Source: a virus
Strand: one strand, 5' to 3'
DNA length: 26,000 nt
Virus genome (UHGV): UHGV-0185509
Shown here: positions 4,566 through 25,294 of the stretch, piece by piece
Layout of the letters: every line of letters begins with the position of its first letter
Numbering within the stretch: position 1 is the first letter of the stretch
Position numbers and translations under genes: made by a program
The notes under the pieces: model-generated
Seen by the model: only the letters and a program-made list of their open reading frames with translations
The model's database searches: none
Told to the model about the DNA's origin: nothing

Positions 4566-5096
4566 ATGAAGTACCCAACAGTTATTGTCAATGGTGTGTC
4601 CGTTCGTGTTGATGAGGATGGACGCTACAACTTAAACGATCTCCATGCAGCAGCAGTTGCAAATGGAGAGGCTACAGAGCAACAGCGCCCAAGCCAGTTT
4701 TTGCGTAGCGCGCAGATAAAACGCTTCATAAAAGCACTGGAGGCCAAAGTGCAAAAAAGCACTTTGGAACAAATTCAACCACTTAAAATAATCAAAGGTG
4801 GTGCAGAACCAGGTGTGTGGGGTGTTGAACTTCTGGCAATCAGATATGCAGCATGGATTAAGCCGGAATTTGAAATCGAAGTTTATGAAGTTTTCAAAAC
4901 GGTCGTCCGTCTCGGCGTTGGCGCAATGTCCCGTCTGAATAGAATCGATCACATCATCAATACTGAAACCAAAGCGATAAGCCAGTGCGCAAGCCAAATG
5001 GCTAAGTGGGGCGTTGGTGGGCGAAAAAGATTGCTTCATGTTGCACGTGAGAGAGCGGCAAATGAAGTGCAAATGTATTTGCCCGGAATGGTGTGA
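4566..5096 (+). CDS. KilA-N domain protein (accessory gene between lysis and packaging modules)
   Basis: 176 aa; N-terminal region (VIVNGVSVRVDEDGRYNLNDLHAAA) fits the KilA-N DNA-binding domain pattern; flanked by non-coding DNA on both sides. Confidence 0.6.
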   Translation: MKYPTVIVNGVSVRVDEDGRYNLNDLHAAAVANGEATEQQRPSQFLRSAQIKRFIKALEAKVQKSTLEQIQPLKIIKGGAEPGVWGVELLAIRYAAWIKPEFEIEVYEVFKTVVRLGVGAMSRLNRIDHIINTETKAISQCASQMAKWGVGGRKRLLHVARERAANEVQMYLPGMV

Positions 5097-8010: not shown

Positions 8011-10176
8011 ATGGCCGACGAAAACAGACTCAATTCCATTCTGTGTAAGTTTGACGCAGACTGGATGGCGAGCGATGAAGCCAGAACCGAGGCGACAAAT
8101 GACCTGTATTTTAGCCGAGTGTCGCAATGGGATGACTGGCTATCAAACTACACCACCCTGCAGTATCGCGGACAATTCGATGTTGTCCGCCCGGTTGTCA
8201 GGAAGTTGGTCGCAGAGATGCGCCGGAACCCTATCGACGTTCTCTTCCGACCAAAAGACGGTGCTAATCCTGATGCTGCCGATGTGCTGATGGGGATGTA
8301 TCGTACTGATATGCGCCATAACACGGCAAAAATTGCCGTTAACGTTGGCGTTCGTGAGCAGATAGAGTCCGGCGTTGGTGCATGGCGTCTGGTCACGCAG
8401 TACGAAGACAACGATCCAACAAGCAACAATCAGGTAATCCGACGCCTGCCAATCCATGAGGCCTGCTCACACGTCATATGGGACGCAAACAGCAAGCAGA
8501 TGGATAAGAGCGACGCTAAGCACTGCACGGTGATTAACGCTTTGTCACGCAATGGCTGGAAAGAGTTCGCAGAGGATTACGGTATTGATCCTGACACGCT
8601 GCCATCTTTCCAGAATCCGAACGATACATGGCTGTTTCCGTGGGTATCGAATGATGTCGTCTACGTCGCTGAGTATTACGAGGTCGAAGAGAAGAAAGAG
8701 AAGGTCTTCATCTACCGCGACCCGCTGACAGGTGAGCCGGTCAGCTATTACCAGCAGGATATCAAAGACGTCATCGACGACCTGGCTAATCGTGGATTCA
8801 TTAAGGTAGCAGAGCGCAAGGTGAAGCGTCGGCGTGTGTATAAGTCGATCATCACCTGCACGCAGATACTGAAAGACCGCGAGAAGATAGCTGGAGAGCA
8901 TATCCCAATCGTTCCTGTGTACGGCGAATGGTCATTCGCTGGTGACAAGGAGTGCTACGAAGGAGTGGTAAGGCTGACGAAAGACGGTCAACGCCTTCGT
9001 AACATGATCATGTCGTTCAACGCCGATATCGTTGCCCGTTCACCGAAGAAGAAACCGACCTTCTTCCCTGAGCAAATCGAAGGCTACGAATACATGTACG
9101 GTGGAAATGATGACTATCCGTACTATCTGCAGAACAGGACCGATGAAAACGGTAACGACCTGCCGATTGGTCCAATCTCCTACATGGAAAACCCTGAAGT
9201 GCCGCAAGCCAACGCTTACATGCTTGAGGCTGCCACCAACGCAGTGAAAGAGGTGGCTAGTCTTGGCGTGGATGCGCAGGCGGCAAACTCTCAGGTCGCT
9301 TTCGATACCGTCAATCAACTGAACATGCGGGCAGATCTTGAGACATACGTGTTTCAGGATAACCTGGCTACCGCAATGCGACGTGATGGCGAGATTTATG
9401 CCTCAATGGTCAACGATATTTATGACGTTCCTCGTCATGTAACGCTGACACTTGAAGATGGAAGCGAGAAAGACGTTCAACTCTATGCGCAAGTTGTCGA
9501 TTATCAGTCCGGCAATGTGGTCACACTCAACGACATTCGCGGTCGCTATGAGTGCTATACGGACGTTGGGCCATCCTTCCAGAGCATGAAGGAACAGAAT
9601 CGCGCAGAGATTCAGGAGTTGCTAACCAAGGTTCCGCAAGGTACTCCAGAGTTCCAGATGCTGATGCTGCAATACTTCACGTTGCTTGACGGTAAAGGCG
9701 TCGAGATGATGCGAGAGTACGCGAACAAGCAACTGGTGATGATGGGGCTGAAGAAACCAGAAACACCTGAAGAGATGGAGATGGTGCAGCAGGCACAACA
9801 ACAGCCGCAGCAGCCATCAGCAGAGCAAATTCAGGCGCAGGGTATCCTTCTGCAAGGTCAGGCTGAATTGCTCAAGGCAGAGAACCAACAGGCGCAGATT
9901 CAGGTTGAAGCCGCCAAGGTTGAAGCCCAAAACCAACTCAACGCCGCGAAGATTGCAGAAATCTTCAACAATATGGACCTCGACAAGCAGGCAGAACTGC
10001 GTGAGTACCTCAAGCTCGTAGGTCAATTCCAGCAACAGCGCAGCAAAGATGCTCGTGCTAACGCTGAGCTGCTTCTTAAAGATGCAGACCAGACTCATTC
10101 ACAACGCATGGATTTCGCGAATCTTATGCGTCAAGTTCAAATCCCCTCCGGCGGAGTAGCCGAGACACCTCAATAA
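8011..10176 (+). CDS. gp1: portal protein (P22 gp1-type)
   Basis: 721 aa (P22 portal 725 aa); Gln/Ala-rich helical C-terminus ([18 protein letters not shown]...) typical of the P22 portal barrel; ATG immediately follows the terminase stop. Confidence 0.9.
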
Positions 10177-11101: not shown

Positions 11102-12396
11102 TGGCATTAAATGAAGGTCAACTGGTCACGTATGCTCTGGATGAAATCATCGAAACCGTCCAGAACCTGACGCCAATGGCGTCCAAAGTGACAAAATACA
11201 CCCCTCCGGCAGAATCCATGCAGCGTTCAAGCAACACCGTGTGGATGCCTGTTGAGCAGGAAGCGCCAACCCAGACTGGCTGGGATTTAACTGGCAACGC
11301 AACCGGGATTCTGGAACTCTCCGTGAAATGCAACATGGGCGATCCGGATAACGATTTTTTCGAGCTTCGTGCAGATGACCTGCGTGATGAGCGTTCTTAC
11401 CGTCGCCGCATCCAGGCATCCGCCAAAAAACTGGCGAATAACATTGAGTCAGCGATTGCCAAACAGGCAACTGAAATGGGCTCGCTTGTTGTTCACGATA
11501 CCCGCGCAATTGGTCCATCTACTGGCCTGTCTGGCTGGGATTTTGTGTCTGATGCAGAGCGCCTGATGTTCTCCCGTGAGCTAAACCGCGATATGGGCAT
11601 CAGTTACTTCCTGAACCCTGACGATTACCGCAAAGCAGGCCGCAACCTGGTAGATGGTGACATCTTTGGGCGCGTTCCTGAAGAAGCGTATCGCAACGGT
11701 ACTATTCAGCGTCAGATTGCTGGCTTTGATGAAATTCTTCGCTCACCGAAACTTCCGGCAGTTACCAAGTCAACCGCTACTGGTGTAACTGTGTCTGGTG
11801 CGCAGAAGTTTAAGCCGCAGGCATACACCCTTGATACCGATGGTAACAAAGAGAACGTTGACAACCGTGTTGCAACGGTGACCGTATCCTCCACCACCGG
11901 GTTTAAGCGCGGCGACAAAATCAGCTTCACTGGTGTGAAATTCCTGTCTCAGATGGCGAAGAACGTGCTAACTGATGACGCGACTTTCTCAATCACCCGT
12001 GTGATCGATGGTACTCACATCGAAATCACGCCGAAACCGATTGCACTGGATGACGCGTCACTGACAAAAGAAGAGAAGGCTTACGCTAACGTAAACACCT
12101 CTCTTGCTGATACCACTCCGGTAAACGTTCTGAACGTGGCAACAACCACCGCTAACGTGTTTTGGGCTGATGACTCAATCCGTCTGCTGTCTCAGCCGAT
12201 CCCGGTAACCCATGAACTGTTTGCTGGCATGAAAACGTCTTCCTTCAGCATTCCTGGTATTGGTGTTAACGGCATCTTCGCAACGCAGGGTGATATCAAC
12301 ACTCTGTCTGGTAAGTGCCGTATTGCTGTGTGGTATTCAGCATGTGCTGTACGACCAGAGGCAATTGGTGTTGGTCTGCCTAACCAGACTGCGTGA
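11101..12396 (+). CDS. gp5: major coat protein (P22 gp5-type)
   Basis: 430 aa plus initiator Met; aligns along its length with P22 coat as I recall it (MALNEGQ.VT...DEIIET...[21 protein letters not shown]...GVGLP.QTA). Confidence 0.95.
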
Positions 12397-16433: not shown

Positions 16434-17822
16434 ATGGCTACTTGGCAAGGAACAAATGGCGGATTGTTGGCTGGTATCGGCGGCGTCAACTCAAACGCTC
16501 CGAGCGTAAATGACATCGGCAATACGCTTCAGCTTATCAGGCAGAACAATGATATTGAGCGTTCAGGCGCTAACAATGTTGGGCTGACTGCTTTGCAAGG
16601 CCTTTCAGGTATTGCGGGGGTGTTTCAGCAGGAGAAGCAGGCTCAGCGGCAGAAAGAATTTCAGCAGGCGTACGCTAATGCTTATGCGTCTGGTGATCGC
16701 GGTGCTTTGCGTCAGTTGGCTACTCAATATCCAGACCAGATTGAATCCGTTCGTAAAGGCATGGGATTCATTGATGAAGACCAGCGTAATTCTATCGGCA
16801 CCTTAGCGGCTGGCGCACGCCTTGCGTCATCGTCTCCAGAAGCAATGCAATCATGGCTGCAAAACAACGCCAAGGAACTGAATCGCGTCGGTGTTGACCC
16901 TAATAACGTTGCTCAGATGTATCAGCAGAATCCTTCAGGATTTGGTGAGTTTGTTGATCACCTTGGAATGGCTGCTCTTGGTCCGATTGATTACTTCAAT
17001 GTTCAGGACAAGATGGCTGGTCGTGAGATTGATCGCGGAAAACTTGCAGAGACAATCCGCAGCAATCAGGCTGGCGAGGCGCTAACAGCACGAGGCCAGA
17101 ACATCACGATGCGCGGTCAGGACTTATCTGCTTCTACTGCGCGACGAGGTCAGGATTTGGCAATGCAGCGAGCGTCAACAAGAGGAATCGCTGGGAATGA
17201 TGAGCGTACAGTTCAGTTATCAGATGGCAGAACTGTAACGGTAGGCGGGAAGCTTCACGGCGCTGGGGCTAATGCGTTCTACGAAGGCATCGACAACGAG
17301 GGGAATATGGTTCGCGTTCCTGCCAGTTCAATCGCAGCGCCTGCAACATCGTCTGCATCAGCACAAAACTATGCCATGAAGAAGGATATCGACGCGATCG
17401 CAAATGCAGACGCTTCTGCTCTCGATTTCATGACAGGAATGACAGGCGGTGCAGGTAATCCAGCAATTGGTGCTGATGTTCGTAGCCGATTAACAGGAAA
17501 AGAGCAGCGCCAGTTATATAACTCAGCACAACGTATTCAGGGCAGAATGCAGAATCAGGGTGTGGCGGCAGCAAGGGACATGGGTGCCAGTGGTATTAAC
17601 ACCGTTGCAGAAGCGAAGATGTATTTTCAGGGGATGCCGCAGGTTGACTATTCAAGCCCGGAGGCTATGCAGCAGTCGATTCGTGAAATTCAGGAATACA
17701 CCAACAATTACAACCAACAATATAACGTTAATGTTGGTAAATCTCAGCGGAAGCAATCTCAACCTGCACAGGTATCACAGCCAGCAGCCAGCAGTAACTT
17801 TTCTTCACTATGGGGTGATTAA
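16434..17822 (+). CDS. gp20: ejection (internal virion) protein, P22 gp20-type
   Basis: 462 aa (P22 gp20 about 471 aa); conserved position; Gln/Ala-rich low-complexity composition typical of ejection proteins. Confidence 0.75.
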
Positions 17823-20125
17823 TGGCTAAAGCATGGAAAGATGTTATCGCCTCTCCACAGTATCAGGCGTTAGCACCAGAACAAAAAGCGCAGGCTCAGG
17901 AGCAATACTTCAATGAAGTCGTGGCCCCGCAAGCCGGAGAAAATGCAGATCAGGCTAAGCAAGCTTTCTATGATGCCTATCCATTGCCTTCAATGCAGAC
18001 AGAACAGCAGGAAGTAGGGCAATCTCCTGATACCATTCAGCAAGACAAATCACTTATGCAGCGTGCAGGAGAATGGCTAACAGGTGGTCAAAGTGCAGGG
18101 CAAATTGCAGAACAGTCTGGTCGTGGTCTGGTAAACATACCATTTGACGTATTGCAGGGTGGCGCAAGTCTGATTAATGCAATCAGTCAGGGGCTTGGGG
18201 GGCCAAAAGTATTGGATGATGTTTATCGTCCAGTAGACAGACCGACAGACCCCTACGCGCAAGCTGGAGAGTCAATAGGCGGTTATCTTGTTCCTGGAGC
18301 AGGTGTAGCTGGAAACATGGTCATTGGTTCTCTCGCTGACGCGGCGAATCAACGGGGTGATTTTGCCGAAAATGCCGCTATTAATGCCGGACTTAACATT
18401 GCTACGCATGGCCTGATAAATGGCGTTACCCGTGGTGTTCGTGGCGCATCAAATATAATTAGTGGCAATAAAACATCTGCACAGAGAGCGACCACTGCGC
18501 TAACAGAAACATCACCATTCTCCGGTGATGCCGCTGCAGCAACAAATCCTGCGGTTCATGCCGCAGAGGCAAGAGTAGCACAAGGTGTACCAATGACGCC
18601 TGCGACGAGGAACCCAGAGGAAGTCGTTCGCACAGTAGCAGCACAAAAAAGGCCAAATCTCGCTTCATCGCTTGATGAACTAGATATCAATCCTCAGGCT
18701 GAAGTTCTGGAGTCTGCTGAAAGGCTTAATGTTGATTCATTACTCCCTTCACACTTTTCCGGGAACGAGCAATACAAGGCAGTTGAGCAAGCAATCAAGT
18801 CCCGTGCGGGTTCTGCTCTACAGGTGCAGGAAAATGAAGCAATCAGGCAGCTAGCACAGGGCGCGGGGGAGATAATTGATCGCGTTTCCGGTGCAAAAGA
18901 TGCTCTTGGTATGAGCGACAAGTTTATTGATACGGTCAATGGAAGAATGTCTGCGCTGATGAAACGAAGCGACCAGCTTTATCGCAATGTTGAAAAGGCG
19001 ATGCCTGCAGGTGCAAAAATTGATGCGCCATCAACAAGGTCAATGCTCAAACAGGTGGCAGAAGATCTTGGCGGGATGAAAAACCTTGACCCTATTGAAA
19101 AGAGAGTCTTTCGGGCAGTTAATCCAGGCAAGAACGGCGCATTAACTTATGCAAATCTCAATAAGCAACGACGACTTGTTGGTGATGCACTTCATAAGAA
19201 TTCTGGACCATATAAAGATGCTGATCGCGCTGCTTTATCGAGGCTTTACGGTTCGCTCGCCGATGATCAAAAGGCGGCGCTGTCAGAGACAAATGCATTA
19301 CGTGATTTTGAAGTTGCTCAGAGGCTTGTTCAGATGCGAAAAAGCATGGAAGAGCAAATGATTAATCTAACTGGCAGAACGCTGAACGGTGATGTTTCTC
19401 GCAAAGCAACTACAGCACTACAGGCAATGTCGAAAGGCGATGCCAAAGGATTTCGTGAATTGATGCAAAACACGCCGTCCAGGAAGCTAAGAACCGAGCT
19501 ACTGGGAACAGGTCTTCGGGATATGCTTTCGAACGGAAAACGTGGCGCTGATTTTAATCCTGCAGGGTTTGCTGACTGGTATCAAAACATGTTAGCAAAC
19601 GGGCAGATGCGCAATCTTGCCCGACATTTACCAAAAGAGACTATGTCAGGTCTGAACGATGTATATAAGGTCGCAAAGGCTATCAAAGACGCAAAATCTT
19701 ACGAGATAACTACAGGAAGACTAAACGAGTTCGTAAAACGGTTTAATCGCGTCACTGCGGCAAATGAATTTGTTGCTAACCATGCCCAACGCATTGGCAC
19801 TGCGGTTGGTTCAACTGTGTCAGGACCGTTTAGTGCAGTAGGTGCTGTTGCTGGGTCAGAAATTGGGGCAAAAGTCGCCAGCAAAATCAGGGCGATGGGC
19901 GGCGCTGAATCAATTGAATCTGCAGAAAAGCTAATTAGCTCACCAGAATTCCAGAAAGCAGCAAGGCTGGCAGTAAAACAAGCACCAGAAAGCATCGTTG
20001 ATACAACTGTAAGACGCTCTTCTGCTTGGCGCTCGTTTTACAACTCACTTCCAGAATCAGATAAGAAAACCATATCAAGGCTAGGCATCATGTACTGGAT
20101 GAACAGTGATGATAACCAGAAGTAA
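17822..20125 (+). CDS. gp16: ejection (internal virion) protein, P22 gp16-type, unusually long
   Basis: 767-aa ORF in the gp16 position (P22 gp16 about 609 aa from memory); start overlaps gp20 stop; assignment by synteny and composition. Confidence 0.7.
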
Positions 20126-20142
20126 CGGAAAGCCACGGATGG

Positions 20143-20403
20143 TTAGTTGCTGTCTTTTTTATATAAATCTCTGAGCGTATCAAAGACAATTTTCTTTACC
20201 ATATCAGATTGTTGTTCTGCCATACGCTCTGCATCGTCAATGTAAACAGATGCAGAGCTTTGTTTAGCCAATGATTCTTCAATCGCTGCAATTATCTCTG
20301 AGTTCAGCGACCTGTTATTCATCTTCGCACGCTGTTTAATTTTCGCGTGAAGCTCATGCGGAAGTCTCAAGTGAAACTGCGCCTCGTCGTATTTGCTGTA
20401 CAT
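20143..20403 (-). CDS. mnt: Mnt-like ribbon-helix-helix repressor (Arc/Mnt family)
   Basis: C-terminal region (NDAERMAEQQSDMVKKIVFDTLRDLYKK) and N-terminal RHH strand (FHLRLPHELHAKIKQRAKMNNRSLNSEI) match P22 Mnt as I recall it; start placed at the ATG giving 86 aa with an AAGGA Shine-Dalgarno; the ORF track extends it to a TTG at 20487. Confidence 0.8.
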   Translation of the reverse strand: MYSKYDEAQFHLRLPHELHAKIKQRAKMNNRSLNSEIIAAIEESLAKQSSASVYIDDAERMAEQQSDMVKKIVFDTLRDLYKKDSN

Positions 20404-20538
20404 CCTTGATGCCTCACCAAATGGGTGGAATGGCATCGTAAAACCTACTGTACAAATCAACAATAGTACCGTTTCGGTATGTAACAAATGCCAACCGTAG
20501 CCATGCTGCGGCGATTCCTTGTATCTGGAGCAAATTAA

Positions 20539-22401
20539 ATGACAGACATTACAGCCAATGTGATCGTATCAATGCCTTCGCAACTCTTCACTATGGCGCG
20601 TTCTTTTAAAGCCGTAGCCAATGGAAAAATTTATATCGGTAAAATTGACACTGACCCGGTAAATCCTGAAAACCAGATTCCGGTTTATGTAGAGAACGAA
20701 GACGGCTCTCACGTTCCTGTTTCGCAACCAATAATCATTAACGCTGCCGGATATCCGGTATATAATGGACAGATTGCCAAGTTCGTAACTGTGCAAGGCC
20801 ATTCCATGGCTGTATATGATGCGTATGGTTCGCAGCAGTTCTATTTTCCGAATGTGCTGAAGTATGACCCTGACCAGTTTAGACAGGTTATAGAGGGGCC
20901 TGACGGGGCTTACGATGTTGGGTACACAACAGCATTTAATAATAATGAGATAACCGTTGGAGATGCGCTCGATAATAAAATTCCTAACATTATTGGTAAC
21001 GTTGATGTGCCACCAACTGGGTTTATTTTCCATCCATTCACAAGATATAGCGGAGACCATGACTTGCGATATATCAACGGTGGAAACCCCAAATCAATTA
21101 AAAGGCTGAAGAAGACGGGTAATGCCACCGTCACGCTCAACCCTATCACCACTGAGGGTTCCAGCCCTAGCAAGTTAACCGTCGATACAGTAGGGTACGT
21201 TAACCCGGCAAACGCCGACCCCGACGGCACTACATTTCCGGCAGGAATAAAAATTGATGGTGTCACATTTGAAGGGGACGATGCCGGCGGGCAAAGCGGT
21301 TTAACAATACTGCAAGGACACAATTTTCAGATTAAAGAATGCGGATTCTCTAAAACAAAGATTGCGATATGGTTACGTGACGTATGGATGTCGTCGGTAA
21401 GAGACTGTAGTTTGTTCGGACAGTACCTACAAGAGGGTGGAACCAGCATGACTATTGAGAATTGTTATGCGACAGTGCACGACAGCACGGTGACTCCTGG
21501 AGCATTCAGAATTTCAAATCTTCAATACTCATCCATGTCTAGCTGCGCTTCTGATGGCACCGTAAATACAGCGTATTACTTCAACGGTAATAACGGGCTT
21601 AAGGTAACGAGTTGCGGTTCGGAAGTACCAACAGCTCTAGACAAAAACTACGGGACAGCCGCGCATTTCGAAGAAAGTAACGAGATGATACTTGATAATT
21701 TCTACACATTACCTGCTTCGGGTAGCAATATTCTGTTCTCTATAAAAAACAACAACGATCTTGTATTCAATAATACTATGGTTTACGGGGATCCGGCAAA
21801 ATGGAGTCGGGATTTCTGGTTACTTGGTTCCGGGAATAAAGTAGTTGTTAATGGGGGGACTTTTGGGAATACAGGGCGTATCCCGTTGGTGGCAACTAAC
21901 GCTGCTGGTAACACGTTTATCTACAACAGTACTGATGGCAATAGCTACATCGCTAAAACGACTGGCGCGGCTATCACTGTAACCCTTGAACCTAAATTCC
22001 TTAGCAAAACTCTGGATCTTACATCCGATGTGGTCTTTGCAAATAGTGGCCCAGTTACTGGTGGAACCAAGGACATTAAGTTCACTAAGAGTGGTAACAT
22101 TGCTACGGTAGAATTTAATATCACCATCCCTGACATATCTGGCAAAGTAGGTCAACTTTTGATAAATGGCTTACCTTATGCTGCGGCACAGTCTGGTAGC
22201 GGTAGTGTATCTATAGCTTTAGGTCTTGCCACAGGGGTTGGTAATATCACTTGTGTAATACTAAGGGATGACAACCAAATTATGTTTTACAAGTCAACTA
22301 CAACTAGTGGTGTGTCTTCAGCTCTAGGTCCATCTGACTTAATTAATGGGAGTAGTTTAAGGGGGAGCATTACTTACTCCTGCGTGTCTGACTGGGATTA
22401 A
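20539..22401 (+). CDS. gp9: tailspike protein: P22 gp9-type N-terminal head-binding domain fused to a different receptor-binding (beta-helix) body
   Basis: 620 aa; first ~110 aa ([11 protein letters not shown]...[38 protein letters not shown]...[16 protein letters not shown]...NVLKYDPDQ) match the P22 tailspike N-terminus, while the remainder has no resemblance to the P22 body that I can see. Confidence 0.9.
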
Positions 22402-22482: not shown

Positions 22483-24006
22483 TTATTTGCAACTAATCTT
22501 TCTAAAATCAATGACAAAATACTTGTCATTCACAAATGTATTATACATTTGTCCTTTTGAAACCATTTTCATTTCGCATGGGTTAATCGTATAATTGGCA
22601 TTCTCTATGGGATTCTGTATACCAAACATTTTTATCATACCTTTTCCCCACCATCCATTATTATAGTAAAGAGGAACAACTGAAGAGAGGGAGGGAAATC
22701 TTCTTATAGCATTATCTCTTTGCGGAGATGAAGGTTGCACTCCAAAAAACATGATGGTTTTTGTGGCCTCTGGATCGTTACGTGATATTTCCTCTGCCAT
22801 GATATGCGATAAAAAATAATCAAATTTATTTTGAGCGTCCATAGCACTTCCAAATGCGTATGAGTAGACTAGAAGCGGTAATACGAAAGGTGTTGATAAT
22901 ATGATATGATGCTTAAAGTTTTTAATTAAAGAAAAATAAGATATGCCAACTAATAGCATAAATCCGCTAAACGAAGCCATGACTCTATCTGAGAATACTG
23001 GATATTTTAATAAACATAAATGTATTGCAGCAAATGCCATTATTATTAATGGAGATATCAATAACAAAATAATTATAATTAAATTTAAAAATGATCTTCT
23101 GTTATTGTTAAATATTCCAATGGCTGTCTTTATAATAAATATTGAAACTGTAGCCAAGGAAATTAATGAAAGTAATAGCATGCCATTAACATATAGCAAC
23201 ACCATTGATAAAAATGCCAATGCATTATTTATGAAAATATTAATTCCTTCACGATCAATACTTATTAATGTGGAGTGCTCAATGTTATATTCTCCGAATA
23301 CGAAGTGAGCTGAAATGTTGCTATATATAAAGTATCCAACAAGTAATTGCGCAGCTCTACATAAAATATCTATAATTAGGTCTAGTTGTTTTGTGTATTG
23401 CTTATTAGATGCGTTAATTATGAATTCTATTACTGCCAGACACACAAAAAATCCTATAACAGCCTGGTACAAGCAAAGGGATATAACAACGAAAGAAACT
23501 GAGAAAAACCATTTTAATAATTTTGAACTGTACGATAGGAACGGGAGCAGCATAAGTGACAACGCTGCTATCATTGGTACAACATCGAATTTATAAGATA
23601 AATTTTCAAGCAGAAAAGGGTTTGCAATAATTAGAAAGCATATAACGGCTGAAGCTATGCTATTAAAGTGGTTAAGGTTTGAACGAAAATATAAATATGC
23701 GCATATAATAAAAATTATTATCCCGATAAATAATGTAAGCGGAGAAATGTCAATTGTTGACTCTGCATTCAAGTTAACTAAAGACATTAATAGGTCCGCA
23801 AGAGGTCTTCCATTTGAACTCCATCCAAAATAACCATCCTGTGCTCTTCCAAGATCGTCTATGTAGTATCTATTGGCAATTATTATCGGGATGATATAAA
23901 TAAAACAAAGAGATGATAAATATATTAAAAATAATTTACCTTTTGAGTCCATATGATATTTAATAATTTTATGGCCAGTAATTAATTTGCTCATTGTATA
24001 ATCCAT
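22483..24006 (-). CDS. serotype-specific O-antigen glucosyltransferase (GtrC / Gtr-type family), polytopic membrane protein
   Basis: 507 aa, multiple hydrophobic segments, very AT-rich; sits immediately downstream of gtrA-gtrB in the same orientation, the canonical position of the type-specific gene. Confidence 0.8.
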   Translation of the reverse strand: MDYTMSKLITGHKIIKYHMDSKGKLFLIYLSSLCFIYIIPIIIANRYYIDDLGRAQDGYFGWSSNGRPLADLLMSLVNLNAESTIDISPLTLFIGIIIFIICAYLYFRSNLNHFNSIASAVICFLIIANPFLLENLSYKFDVVPMIAALSLMLLPFLSYSSKLLKWFFSVSFVVISLCLYQAVIGFFVCLAVIEFIINASNKQYTKQLDLIIDILCRAAQLLVGYFIYSNISAHFVFGEYNIEHSTLISIDREGINIFINNALAFLSMVLLYVNGMLLLSLISLATVSIFIIKTAIGIFNNNRRSFLNLIIIILLLISPLIIMAFAAIHLCLLKYPVFSDRVMASFSGFMLLVGISYFSLIKNFKHHIILSTPFVLPLLVYSYAFGSAMDAQNKFDYFLSHIMAEEISRNDPEATKTIMFFGVQPSSPQRDNAIRRFPSLSSVVPLYYNNGWWGKGMIKMFGIQNPIENANYTINPCEMKMVSKGQMYNTFVNDKYFVIDFRKISCK

Positions 24007-24023
24007 GTGATTCCGTAGTTTGT

Positions 24024-24935
24024 CTATTTTTTAATGATATATCTTGGTCTTGATTTAGACTCTATATATATTCTACCTATATACTCACCAAGAACCCCTA
24101 TCCCAATCAGTTGTACACCGCCTAAAAAGAGGATTGATACAAGTAAAGATGGGTATCCACGAACAGAATTACCAAAAATTAGAGTGTCAAAAATCATCCA
24201 TGAGCCATATATAAATGCTAGCCCAGCGACTAATAAACCAATATACGTCCACATGCGAAGAGGGAAGGTCGAGAAGCTCGTGATACCCTCAAGTGCTAGG
24301 TTCCACAATTTCCATCCATTGAATTTAGAGTCACCGGCAACACGTTCTGCCCTCGCGTATTCCACAACATCTGTGCGACCGCCAACCCAACTCAGCACAC
24401 CTTTCATAAAAAGGTTGCGCTCTGGCATAAGCTTAATGTTTTCGACAACTTCACGGCTCATTAACCGGAAATCGCCGACATTCTCCTCGATCTTTGGGTT
24501 GCTTATTTTGTTGTGCAATTTATAAAACCACTCTGCCGTTTTGCGTTTCAGTCGTCCGTCAGTTGAGCGATCAGTTCGCTTAGCCAGCACCATATCAGAG
24601 CCTGCCTGCCACTTTTCGATGAGGTGGGGAATAACCTCAATCGGATCTTGCAGGTCAACATCAATTGGAATTACAGCATCTCCGGTTGCATGGTCTAGCC
24701 CTGCAAACAATGCTGGTTCTTTACCAAAGTTTCGTGTAAATGACAGCGGAACAACCAGCGGGTCTGAAACAGCCAGAGCATTAATAATTGACTCCGTAGC
24801 GTCTTTGCTTCCGTCATTTATGAAAACAATTTCCACTTCATATGGCTTCAACTCTTCGAATTCACGTACCGTTTTATAAAAAATTGGTATCGCTTCTTCT
24901 TCATTGAAGACAGGAACTACAAGAGATATCTTCAT
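24024..24935 (-). CDS. gtrB: bactoprenol glucosyltransferase GtrB (GT2 family)
   Basis: 303 aa; N-terminus ([19 protein letters not shown]...INDGSKD) is a GT2 signature with DxD-like region ([10 protein letters not shown]) and two C-terminal TM helices, as in GtrB. Confidence 0.9.
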
Positions 24936-25294
24936 TTCGTATCCCTAAAGACAATGAACTTTGAATAGACGAAACCGCACACCAGACTGATGGCGGAGAA
25001 GGTGATAAGAGTGATAATTGGAGGAAATGAGCACTTATCAGCAGCCCATCCAACAGTAGCACTCAGTGTTCCCATGAACCCGACATATAACATGTAGCGC
25101 ATCGTTGTAGTCGATGCTTTGAATGTGAATCTTGCATTCGCGAAGAAGCTAAAACTCACAGCCACAACGAAACCTGCGAAGTTTGCAAGAGCTTGATTGG
25201 TATGCGCGCCATAGATACATACACCAAAAACCACCCAGTGTATAAGTGTGTTCAGCACACCAATCGAGGTGTACTTTGCAAATAGCTTTAACAT
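24932..25294 (-). CDS. gtrA: GtrA flippase-like small membrane protein
   Basis: 120 aa, four hydrophobic segments, start motif [20 protein letters not shown]; overlaps the gtrB start by 4 nt; first gene of the three-gene gtr operon. Confidence 0.85.

Follow-up and report, generated by a model that had tools for sequence, protein, structure and literature searches.

A tailspike-adjacent Mnt-family repressor and its candidate operator at a P22-like prophage locus without arc and ant

The Mnt repressor of phage P22 belongs to the immI region (mnt, Omnt/Pant/Pmnt, arc, sar and ant), and to our knowledge its only known job is the silencing of the P22 antirepressor. Here we describe a reduced form of this region in the UHGV virus genome UHGV-0185509. 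The stretch of DNA analysed (26,000 nucleotides, referred to as the window) represents the late region of a prophage of P22-like (Lederbergvirus) type, in which nin-region, antiterminator, lysis, head and tail genes are followed by gtrABC. A gene for an Mnt homologue occupies the variable slot between gene 16 and the tailspike gene, in the same genomic slot and the same orientation as mnt in P22, and faces the tailspike gene across a short divergent gap. Comparison with other phages establishes the identity of the protein, the homology of its candidate operator and promoters to those of P22, a co-variation between protein and operator, purifying selection on mnt and a wide distribution of the arrangement, and supports its origin by deletion. 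From these sequence data we infer DNA binding, promoter activity and an effect on tailspike expression: in the model that we favour, and to which we give an even chance, Mnt would bind the operator, silence a weak rightward promoter into the tailspike gene and maintain its own expression.

In many P22-like prophages of E. coli, Shigella, Salmonella, Proteus, Providencia and Buttiauxella, Mnt and its operator are kept without the antirepressor, always beside the tailspike. The comparison favours a maintained protein-operator pair, where published genome papers leave a relic and a new role open. The analysis supplies exact sites, promoters and pairs of residues and half-sites; the correspondence of protein and operator in three classes, together with the constant linkage to the tailspike, is its addition to what has been published. 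Should the module be an autoregulated leftover only, nothing would change for phage biology.

mnt between gene 16 and the tailspike gene

The stop codon of mnt lies 17 bp beyond the end of gene 16 (20125), and a divergent gap of 135 bp separates its start codon (ATG 20403) from the start of the tailspike gene (20539). The gene 16-type protein has the location of P22 gene 16, and its C-terminal 199 amino acids are 100% identical to gp13 of phage Sf101. Open reading frames (ORFs) and Pfam matches bear out the gene order given in the initial annotation, namely an orphan mnt directly after gp16 and divergent from the tailspike. Its statement that arc and ant are missing from the locus likewise holds, as tblastn with P22 Arc and Ant yields no match anywhere in the window. 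The sequence of the arc-ant junction, and with it sar, is not found in the gap, which aligns solely to the Pmnt/Omnt region and to the gene 9 leader. None of the three components arc, ant and sar of a complete P22-type immI region is thus present at the locus, and the layout is that of an mnt-only "ant moron", with mnt as sole regulator between gene 16 and tailspike, divergent orientation and a retained operator.

Antirepressor-type genes of the window stand 15-20 kb from mnt in other operons, and no Mnt operator-like site was seen near either. One, located in the nin region directly before ybcO, rusA and Q (early-right operon), codes for a Rha+ANT/KilAC protein (470-1192); the other encodes a KilA-N protein (4566-5096) and follows the lysis genes in the late operon.

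The Mnt homologue (86 amino acids) sits within the minus-strand ORF 20143-20487 and has the same two-domain build as P22 Mnt, with which it shares 48.8% identity. Its N-terminal part is an Arc-like ribbon-helix-helix domain (Pfam Arc PF03869, 7.8e-15, residues 7-49) and matches the solved N-terminal domain of P22 Mnt (PDB 1MNT, phmmer 3e-19, residues 6-79). The C-terminal part is a tetramerisation coiled coil (Pfam Repressor_Mnt PF11423, 2.9e-14, residues 57-82; 1e-8 against PDB 1QEY, the P22 Mnt tetramerisation domain). Residues Arg2, His6, Asn8 and Arg10 of P22 Mnt, which we take from published mutagenesis to be the base-contact residues, align with Tyr5, Gln9, His11 and Arg13 of the window protein. 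The P22 contact set is not reproduced, and its alteration, with Gln9/His11 in place of His6/Asn8, implies a different specificity class still inside the Mnt family.

The start of mnt is placed at ATG 20403 and not at ATG 20436 or TTG 20487, because of the spacing of the ribosome-binding site (RBS) and the alignment with the P22 start. A start at TTG 20487 (114 amino acids) was rejected, as the ORF would cross the operator. ATG 20436 (97 amino acids, as annotated in Sf101) was likewise discarded, being located beside the predicted -10 element and upstream of the predicted transcription start. In RefSeq phage records (NC_027398, NC_002371, NC_014900 and others) mnt is named "partition protein ATPase", in the GenBank record of Sf101 "putative chromosome segregation ATPase", and in IME10 it has no annotation. 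The ATPase names are a propagated mis-annotation of a ribbon-helix-helix repressor, and the widespread RefSeq name is corrected here.

The variable slot between gene 16 and gene 9 was named "ant moron" by Villafane et al. (2008), who describe mnt plus one unknown gene in ST64T, ST104 and Para1 (PMC2629481). Descriptions of mnt-only regions in ST64T, ST104 and L are already available (PMC2629481; 10.1101/2020.10.05.325894), and the module is also present in Sf101 and IME10, so that the initial annotation had overrated its novelty. The arrangement in the window is a differently specified further example of these mnt-only ant morons, already contained in published phage genomes with faulty annotation. 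A literature search found no study testing an orphan Mnt. Phages ST64T, ST104 and L (and also ST160, Gally and the Proteus phage Brookers) share with the window a leftward mnt as sole regulator and a divergent tailspike about 120-150 bp away; in the mnt-only morons of the ST64T/ST104/L group the operator is retained and the gene 9 boundary sequence follows, as in the window. Members of this group differ from the window in that they carry Mnt of another class (Gln/Asn, see below) with a strong palindrome and in that, for most of them, a further small gene separates gene 16 from mnt, whereas in the window only 17 bp separate the stop codons. Among the closest known counterparts are Sf101 and IME10, with an Mnt 95% identical to that of the window and the same layout of gene 16, mnt and tailspike. 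The Sf101 region is 91% identical at the DNA level over the whole 901-bp query, and the IME10 region 89% over 74% of the query (mnt, gap and tailspike start). Both differ from the window in the length of the gap (121 bp), in the tailspike leader and in the operator, which reads TACCATTTCGGTA.

Operator, promoters and Mnt classes

The divergent gap contains the inverted repeat TACCGTTTCGGTA, with 5-bp arms (TACCG/CGGTA) and the 3-nt spacer TTT (positions 6 and 8 are both T). Its significance stems from comparison with other phages and not from its own symmetry. Aligning the gap with P22 and other phages, a comparison with the P22 Mnt operator that the initial annotation had proposed, places the repeat at the location of P22 Omnt (AGGTCCACGGTGGACCT). 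A two-fold symmetric element about 55-70 nt upstream of the mnt ATG, abutting the -35 element of Pmnt and overlapping a divergent promoter, is thereby present by positional homology, with weak symmetry. The earlier proposal of a candidate operator gains support from this alignment and from the co-variation with Mnt beta-strand residues described below. Compared to the P22 operator (GGTCCAC-G-GTGGACC), the symmetry of TACC-N5-GGTA in the window is much weaker, and the promoter hexamers of the window are weaker as well.

The left part of the gap (20404-20481) is homologous to the Pmnt/Pant/Omnt region of P22, where divergent promoters overlap and the operator has the equivalent place. The right part (20494-20538) hardly differs from the leader stretch immediately preceding gene 9 in P22, which is annotated as "boundary sequence" in phage CUS-3. 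P22 has arc, sar and ant after its promoter region and the window does not, so that the rightward promoter of the window faces the tailspike directly. The predicted leftward promoter is positionally homologous to the annotated P22 Pmnt (TTGAGA-17-TATCAT), and its TTG and TAnnAT elements are kept in all lineages compared. The predicted rightward promoter is positionally homologous to P22 Pant (TTGACA-17-TATATT).

Mnt proteins were divided into classes by the residues aligned to P22 His6 and Asn8, and the symmetric element found at a common location, 55-70 nt from the mnt ATG, is specific to the class. Operators were assigned by alignment, since automatic picking of the best palindrome chose TGCAA-N11-TTGCA in Sf101-type leaders. 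The His/Asn class (P22, epsilon34, UPF_BP1 and a Pluralibacter prophage) is associated with GGTCCAC-G-GTGGACC. The Gln/Asn class (Gally, ST160, L and five IMG/VR loci) is associated with (TA)AGACCAC-N-GTGGTCT(TA), and three further members (Brookers, Providencia and Symbiopectobacterium) have an otherwise similar operator with one degenerate half-site. The Gln/His class comprises the window, Sf101, IME10, JEP4, VSe13, Buttiauxella and more than 150 IMG/VR loci, and is associated with (G)TACC-N5-GGTA(C); the TACC-N5-GGTA core is near-invariant over 156 loci of this class. The window has neither the Gln/Asn strand nor a AAGACCAC-N-GTGGTCTT operator. As judged from these alignments, operator half-sites co-vary with the Mnt beta-strand residues across lineages. 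All Gln/His and Gln/Asn loci examined, in a biased and non-exhaustive sampling, are tailspike-adjacent orphans, and the individually inspected His/Asn members P22, epsilon34, UPF_BP1 and Pluralibacter all have arc-ant. CUS-3 carries a second mnt copy of the His/Asn type without arc.

In a Citrobacter sp. (L299, around 4001) mnt has a stop at codon 5 (MYSK*DEAQFHLRL) and the operator core is degenerate (TACTATTTCGGTA). Joint decay of protein and site is seen in this one case.

The operator beside mnt is the sole TACC-N5-GGTA in the complete 38.7-kb genome of Sf101. The window holds a single extra copy at 12111, which lies within a coding region, and a recurrent TACCATATTGGTA in relatives falls within the gene 16 coding sequence; no second operator target was found. 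An exact scan of IMG/VR for the operator pattern returned at least 79 loci; among the matches listed, 45 of 79 loci adjoin mnt, and the rest are scattered save for one phage group of about 54% GC. In contigs of this unrelated group the 16-mer GTACCGTTTCGGTATG occurs twice, 515 bp apart (L181:7579-7594 and 8094-8109; also in L185, L204, L212, L233 and L243), in recurring sequence upstream of small genes. The stretches of this group that were examined showed no ribbon-helix-helix gene, and the pair could be a coincidence or an unrelated operator.

Origin, conservation and possible roles

The module is best described as a P22 immI region from which arc, sar and ant have been removed, and the alignments support an origin by deletion because the left part of the gap is a homologue of Pmnt/Pant/Omnt, the right part is the gene 9 leader, and one relative (L151) holds a remnant of ant. 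This locus (L151:411-671, minus strand) retains, between its Gln/His-class operator and the tailspike, the final 86 codons of a P22-type ant (93% identity) together with the terminator of ant; the junction coincides with the boundary sequence GTCGTAGCCACGCTGCGGCGAT, and the locus has the appearance of a deletion intermediate. The loss of arc, ant and sar probably took place by recombination at the boundary sequence upstream of gene 9. The survey of related prophages that had been suggested at the outset finds arc and ant in none of the 80 closest loci, where the P22 Arc query matched mnt-like sequence only, and the 3' remnant of ant in L151 alone among about 160 Gln/His-class loci.

The unit of mnt, gap and tailspike is found at a coverage of at least 80% in 238 of 5426 complete E. 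coli genomes (about 4%). Scans of IMG/VR confirmed 229 relatives with the window Mnt and 220 with the JEP4 Mnt as query, and the best 80 of each (160 loci) were examined; all of them contain the unit of mnt, operator and tailspike, as do phages Sf101, IME10, VSe13, JEP4, Gally, ST160, L and Brookers. The gene is intact in 83 of 84 close copies (one is truncated), which represent 55 distinct coding sequences, and dN/dS among close copies is about 0.12 with the window as reference. These values indicate that mnt is under purifying selection and, together with the fixation of the arrangement in hundreds of prophages, make a decaying remnant unlikely. Of the earlier suggestion that the module is a remnant of an immI deletion, the deletion origin (gap homology, L151) is thus retained and the mere remnant is not.

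In JEP4 (L004, 1203-3863) and L095-L140, gene 16 and mnt are separated by a second immunity-like cassette, convergent with mnt. Its repressor, S24/C2-like or Arc/Mnt-like, faces a gene for a ribbon-helix-helix protein of 57 amino acids, after which come genes of the Rha, KilA or Ant-like kind. Despite this antirepressor cassette on the far side of mnt, the operator in these loci remains directed towards the tailspike. Mnt of the JEP4 type is window-like in its DNA-binding N-terminal half and differs in the C-terminal one, a combination suggestive of domain shuffling.

Based on this dataset, we favour the following model. The reduced immI region would keep an Mnt-family repressor, a matching operator and overlapping, opposed promoters of the P22 style, of which the rightward Pant equivalent would point into the tailspike gene, with the tailspike start 59 nt past the operator. 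In a lysogen, Mnt would be made from the leftward promoter and, probably as a tetramer like P22 Mnt, would bind the single operator centred at 20473. This operator abuts the predicted -35 element of Pmnt and covers the predicted start of the rightward promoter. Binding may thereby shut off tailspike transcription that is independent of the late operon and favour continued transcription of mnt, and production of the tailspike would then depend entirely on read-through of the late operon across antisense mnt. With less confidence, we consider it possible that repression of ant is a job of Mnt in the P22 class only, and that the general job of Mnt is the gating of a late-independent tailspike promoter or of another lysogeny function at this junction. 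If this is true, the three natural pairs of protein and operator would provide a ready-made recognition code for the ribbon-helix-helix beta-sheet.

Several points weigh against the favoured model. The inverted repeat had been described as a perfect 13-bp palindrome at 20467-20479; its location stands, and its perfection amounts to 5-bp arms around a TTT spacer, as are found by chance in about half of shuffled sequences (a shuffled 135-mer is expected to hold 0.8 inverted repeats whose arms measure 5 bp or more and whose spacer does not exceed 5 nt, and such a repeat occurs in 49% of the shuffles). The inner G:C pair is variable, the commonest form in relatives being TACCATTTCGGTA, so that the arms measure 4 bp in most of them, and a few relatives have a substitution in the core itself, e.g. 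TACCATTTCTGTA. Close relatives are 94-100% identical, hence conservation within the class says little, and the co-variation between classes could have arisen before ant was lost. In both directions the promoter hexamers are poor matches (about 7/12 each, the rightward one with an additional TG), the commonest variant of the rightward promoter is ATGGCA-14-ATAAAT compared to ATGGCA-16-ACAAAT in the window, and a generic sigma-70 promoter scan of 20000-20700 returned no promoter in the gap on either strand. Finally, we know of no benefit of tailspike silencing in lysogens.

An alternative that we regard as rather unlikely places the role of Mnt in trans. The resident Mnt would repress the ant promoter of superinfecting relatives with the same operator class, whose antirepressor could then neither inactivate the resident C2 repressor nor induce the prophage, and the operator in cis would serve autoregulation only. 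Purifying selection on mnt despite the absence of ant, the weak appearance of the rightward promoter and L151, in which a Gln/His-class Mnt once stood beside a P22-type ant, are all compatible with such a role, and antirepressor cross-talk between prophages is documented (PMC7380047). The sites themselves argue against it. Among the approximately 160 Gln/His loci there are zero copies of the operator upstream of ant, Rha or KilA, second matches being confined to the coding sequence of gene 16, and the Gln/Asn loci examined likewise have no operator before ant, Rha or KilA. The IMG/VR matches listed, which are mnt-adjacent sites plus scattered unrelated ones, say little on a target in trans.

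Distinctly unlikely in our view is a role of transcription across the junction in place of promoter repression. Either an antisense leftward transcript into the 3' end of gene 16 would exclude related phages, or bound Mnt would act as a roadblock that tunes transcription from the late or antirepressor operon into the tailspike. No intrinsic terminator is predicted in the 17 bp between mnt and gene 16, and the antirepressor operon of the JEP4 type converges on mnt and its operator. Villafane et al. speculated that the ant moron affects late read-through into gene 9 (PMC2629481), and in phage BTP1 an antisense RNA at the junction of gene 16 and tailspike confers superinfection immunity (PMC7067206). 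This RNA, STnc6030, resembles the situation in the window as a leftward transcript expressed from the prophage at the same junction, i.e. a lysogeny function inside the late operon. However, BTP1 has neither mnt nor an ant moron nor the operator, the start of its transcript lies within the tailspike gene, and no sequence homology was found; STnc6030 was therefore rejected as a homologue of the leftward mnt transcript and is analogous at most. A role of the RNA only would not hold Mnt at a dN/dS of 0.12 with an invariant DNA-binding strand, and we found no direct support for the roadblock variant.

That the module is an inert leftover of a recent immI deletion, without function and carried along with the tailspike module, appears very unlikely. 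The deletion itself is supported, the phage L paper leaves a relic open for the mnt-like gene of L (10.1101/2020.10.05.325894), and mnt is occasionally broken (the truncated copy among the 84 and the Citrobacter stop). Against this stand the intact and diverse coding sequences with their low dN/dS, the spread of the arrangement, which reaches about 4% of the complete E. coli genomes and extends to several genera, and the retention of the promoter TTG and TAnnAT elements and of the operator core across deeply diverged classes. Least credible is the reading of the repeat as a coincidence or a small terminator hairpin: it is not significant alone and the promoter/terminator scan flags it, as the sole such element, as terminator-like on the minus strand, but its stem has only 5 bp, its tail (CTATTGTTGA) has no T-run, its position upstream of the mnt promoter precludes termination of mnt transcription, and it shows both positional homology to P22 Omnt and class-specific co-variation.

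Other features of the locus and its relatives

The features of the locus are listed in Table 1.

Table 1. Genes and predicted control elements around mnt in the window, with the gtr genes that follow
Feature	Position	Strand	Description
Gene 16-type ejection (DNA transfer) protein	17822..20125	+	767-aa ORF; last late gene before the mnt module
mnt	20143..20403	-	86-aa Mnt-family ribbon-helix-helix repressor, recognition class Gln9/His11/Arg13
mnt ribosome-binding site GGTGAGG	20412..20418	-	8 nt before ATG 20403; aligns with the P22 mnt GGAGTG site
Pant equivalent (predicted)	20430..20457	+	-35 ATGGCA (20430-20435), 16-nt spacer, TG 20449-20450, -10 ACAAAT (20452-20457)
Pmnt equivalent (predicted)	20435..20463	-	-35 TTGTTG (20463-20458), 17-nt spacer, -10 TACGAT (20440-20435)
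Candidate Mnt operator TACCG-TTT-CGGTA	20467..20479	.	centre 20473; conserved core TACC-N5-GGTA
Tailspike leader ("boundary sequence")	20494..20538	+	stem-loop 20495-20511, RBS GGAG 20527-20530
Tailspike gene	20539..22401	+	P22-type head-binding N-terminal domain; Pfam Head_binding 1.5e-66
gtrC	22483-24006	-	507 aa, GtrII-family, type-specific
gtrB	24024-24935	-	
gtrA	24932-25294	-	

The leader of the tailspike contains a predicted stem-loop, CCGTAGC-CAT-GCTGCGG, with a 7-bp stem, and Gally has CTGTGGC-AAT-GCTGCGG at this place, which keeps the pairing. The stem-loop may be an RNA element and a recombination hotspot. Sf101-type leaders carry another repeat, TGCAA-N11-TTGCA. RNA folding of the tailspike leader and of the gene 16/mnt junction gave no significant structure in either.

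On the side of mnt, the leader and RBS of this gene are bracketed by a 6-bp inverted repeat GATGCC/GGCATC (20408-20413 and 20432-20437), which has a further CACC/GGTG pair on its inner side. The Gln/His and Gln/Asn classes both retain the repeat, and Brookers has TTTGTC/GACAAA there. Its right arm overlaps the predicted -10 element of Pmnt; hence the whole repeat would be transcribed only in the rightward read-through RNA of the late operon. Folding of the minus strand of 20400-20440, i.e. the mnt leader, gave z = -2.0.

Spacing at the locus was compared among the 80 closest loci. The end of gene 16 is 17 or 89 bp from mnt, and the distance from mnt to the tailspike is 121 bp in 65 loci and 135 bp in 5. 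Eleven loci have larger gaps, and ten of these (654 or 728 bp) carry a gene for an HNH homing endonuclease just inside the tailspike gene's 5' end. The HNH gene (166 or 179 amino acids) is inserted on the opposite strand after the first few tailspike codons, and a fresh tailspike start lies downstream. The operator region of mnt is intact in the carriers (L017, L018, L042, L052, L063, L080, L082, L084, L085 and phage Kapi1, L093:1243-1743).

The tailspike gene of the window is directly followed by an O-antigen glucosylation cluster on the minus strand (22483-25294), comprising gtrA, gtrB and gtrC. At the counterpart position, Sf101 has an O-acetyltransferase.

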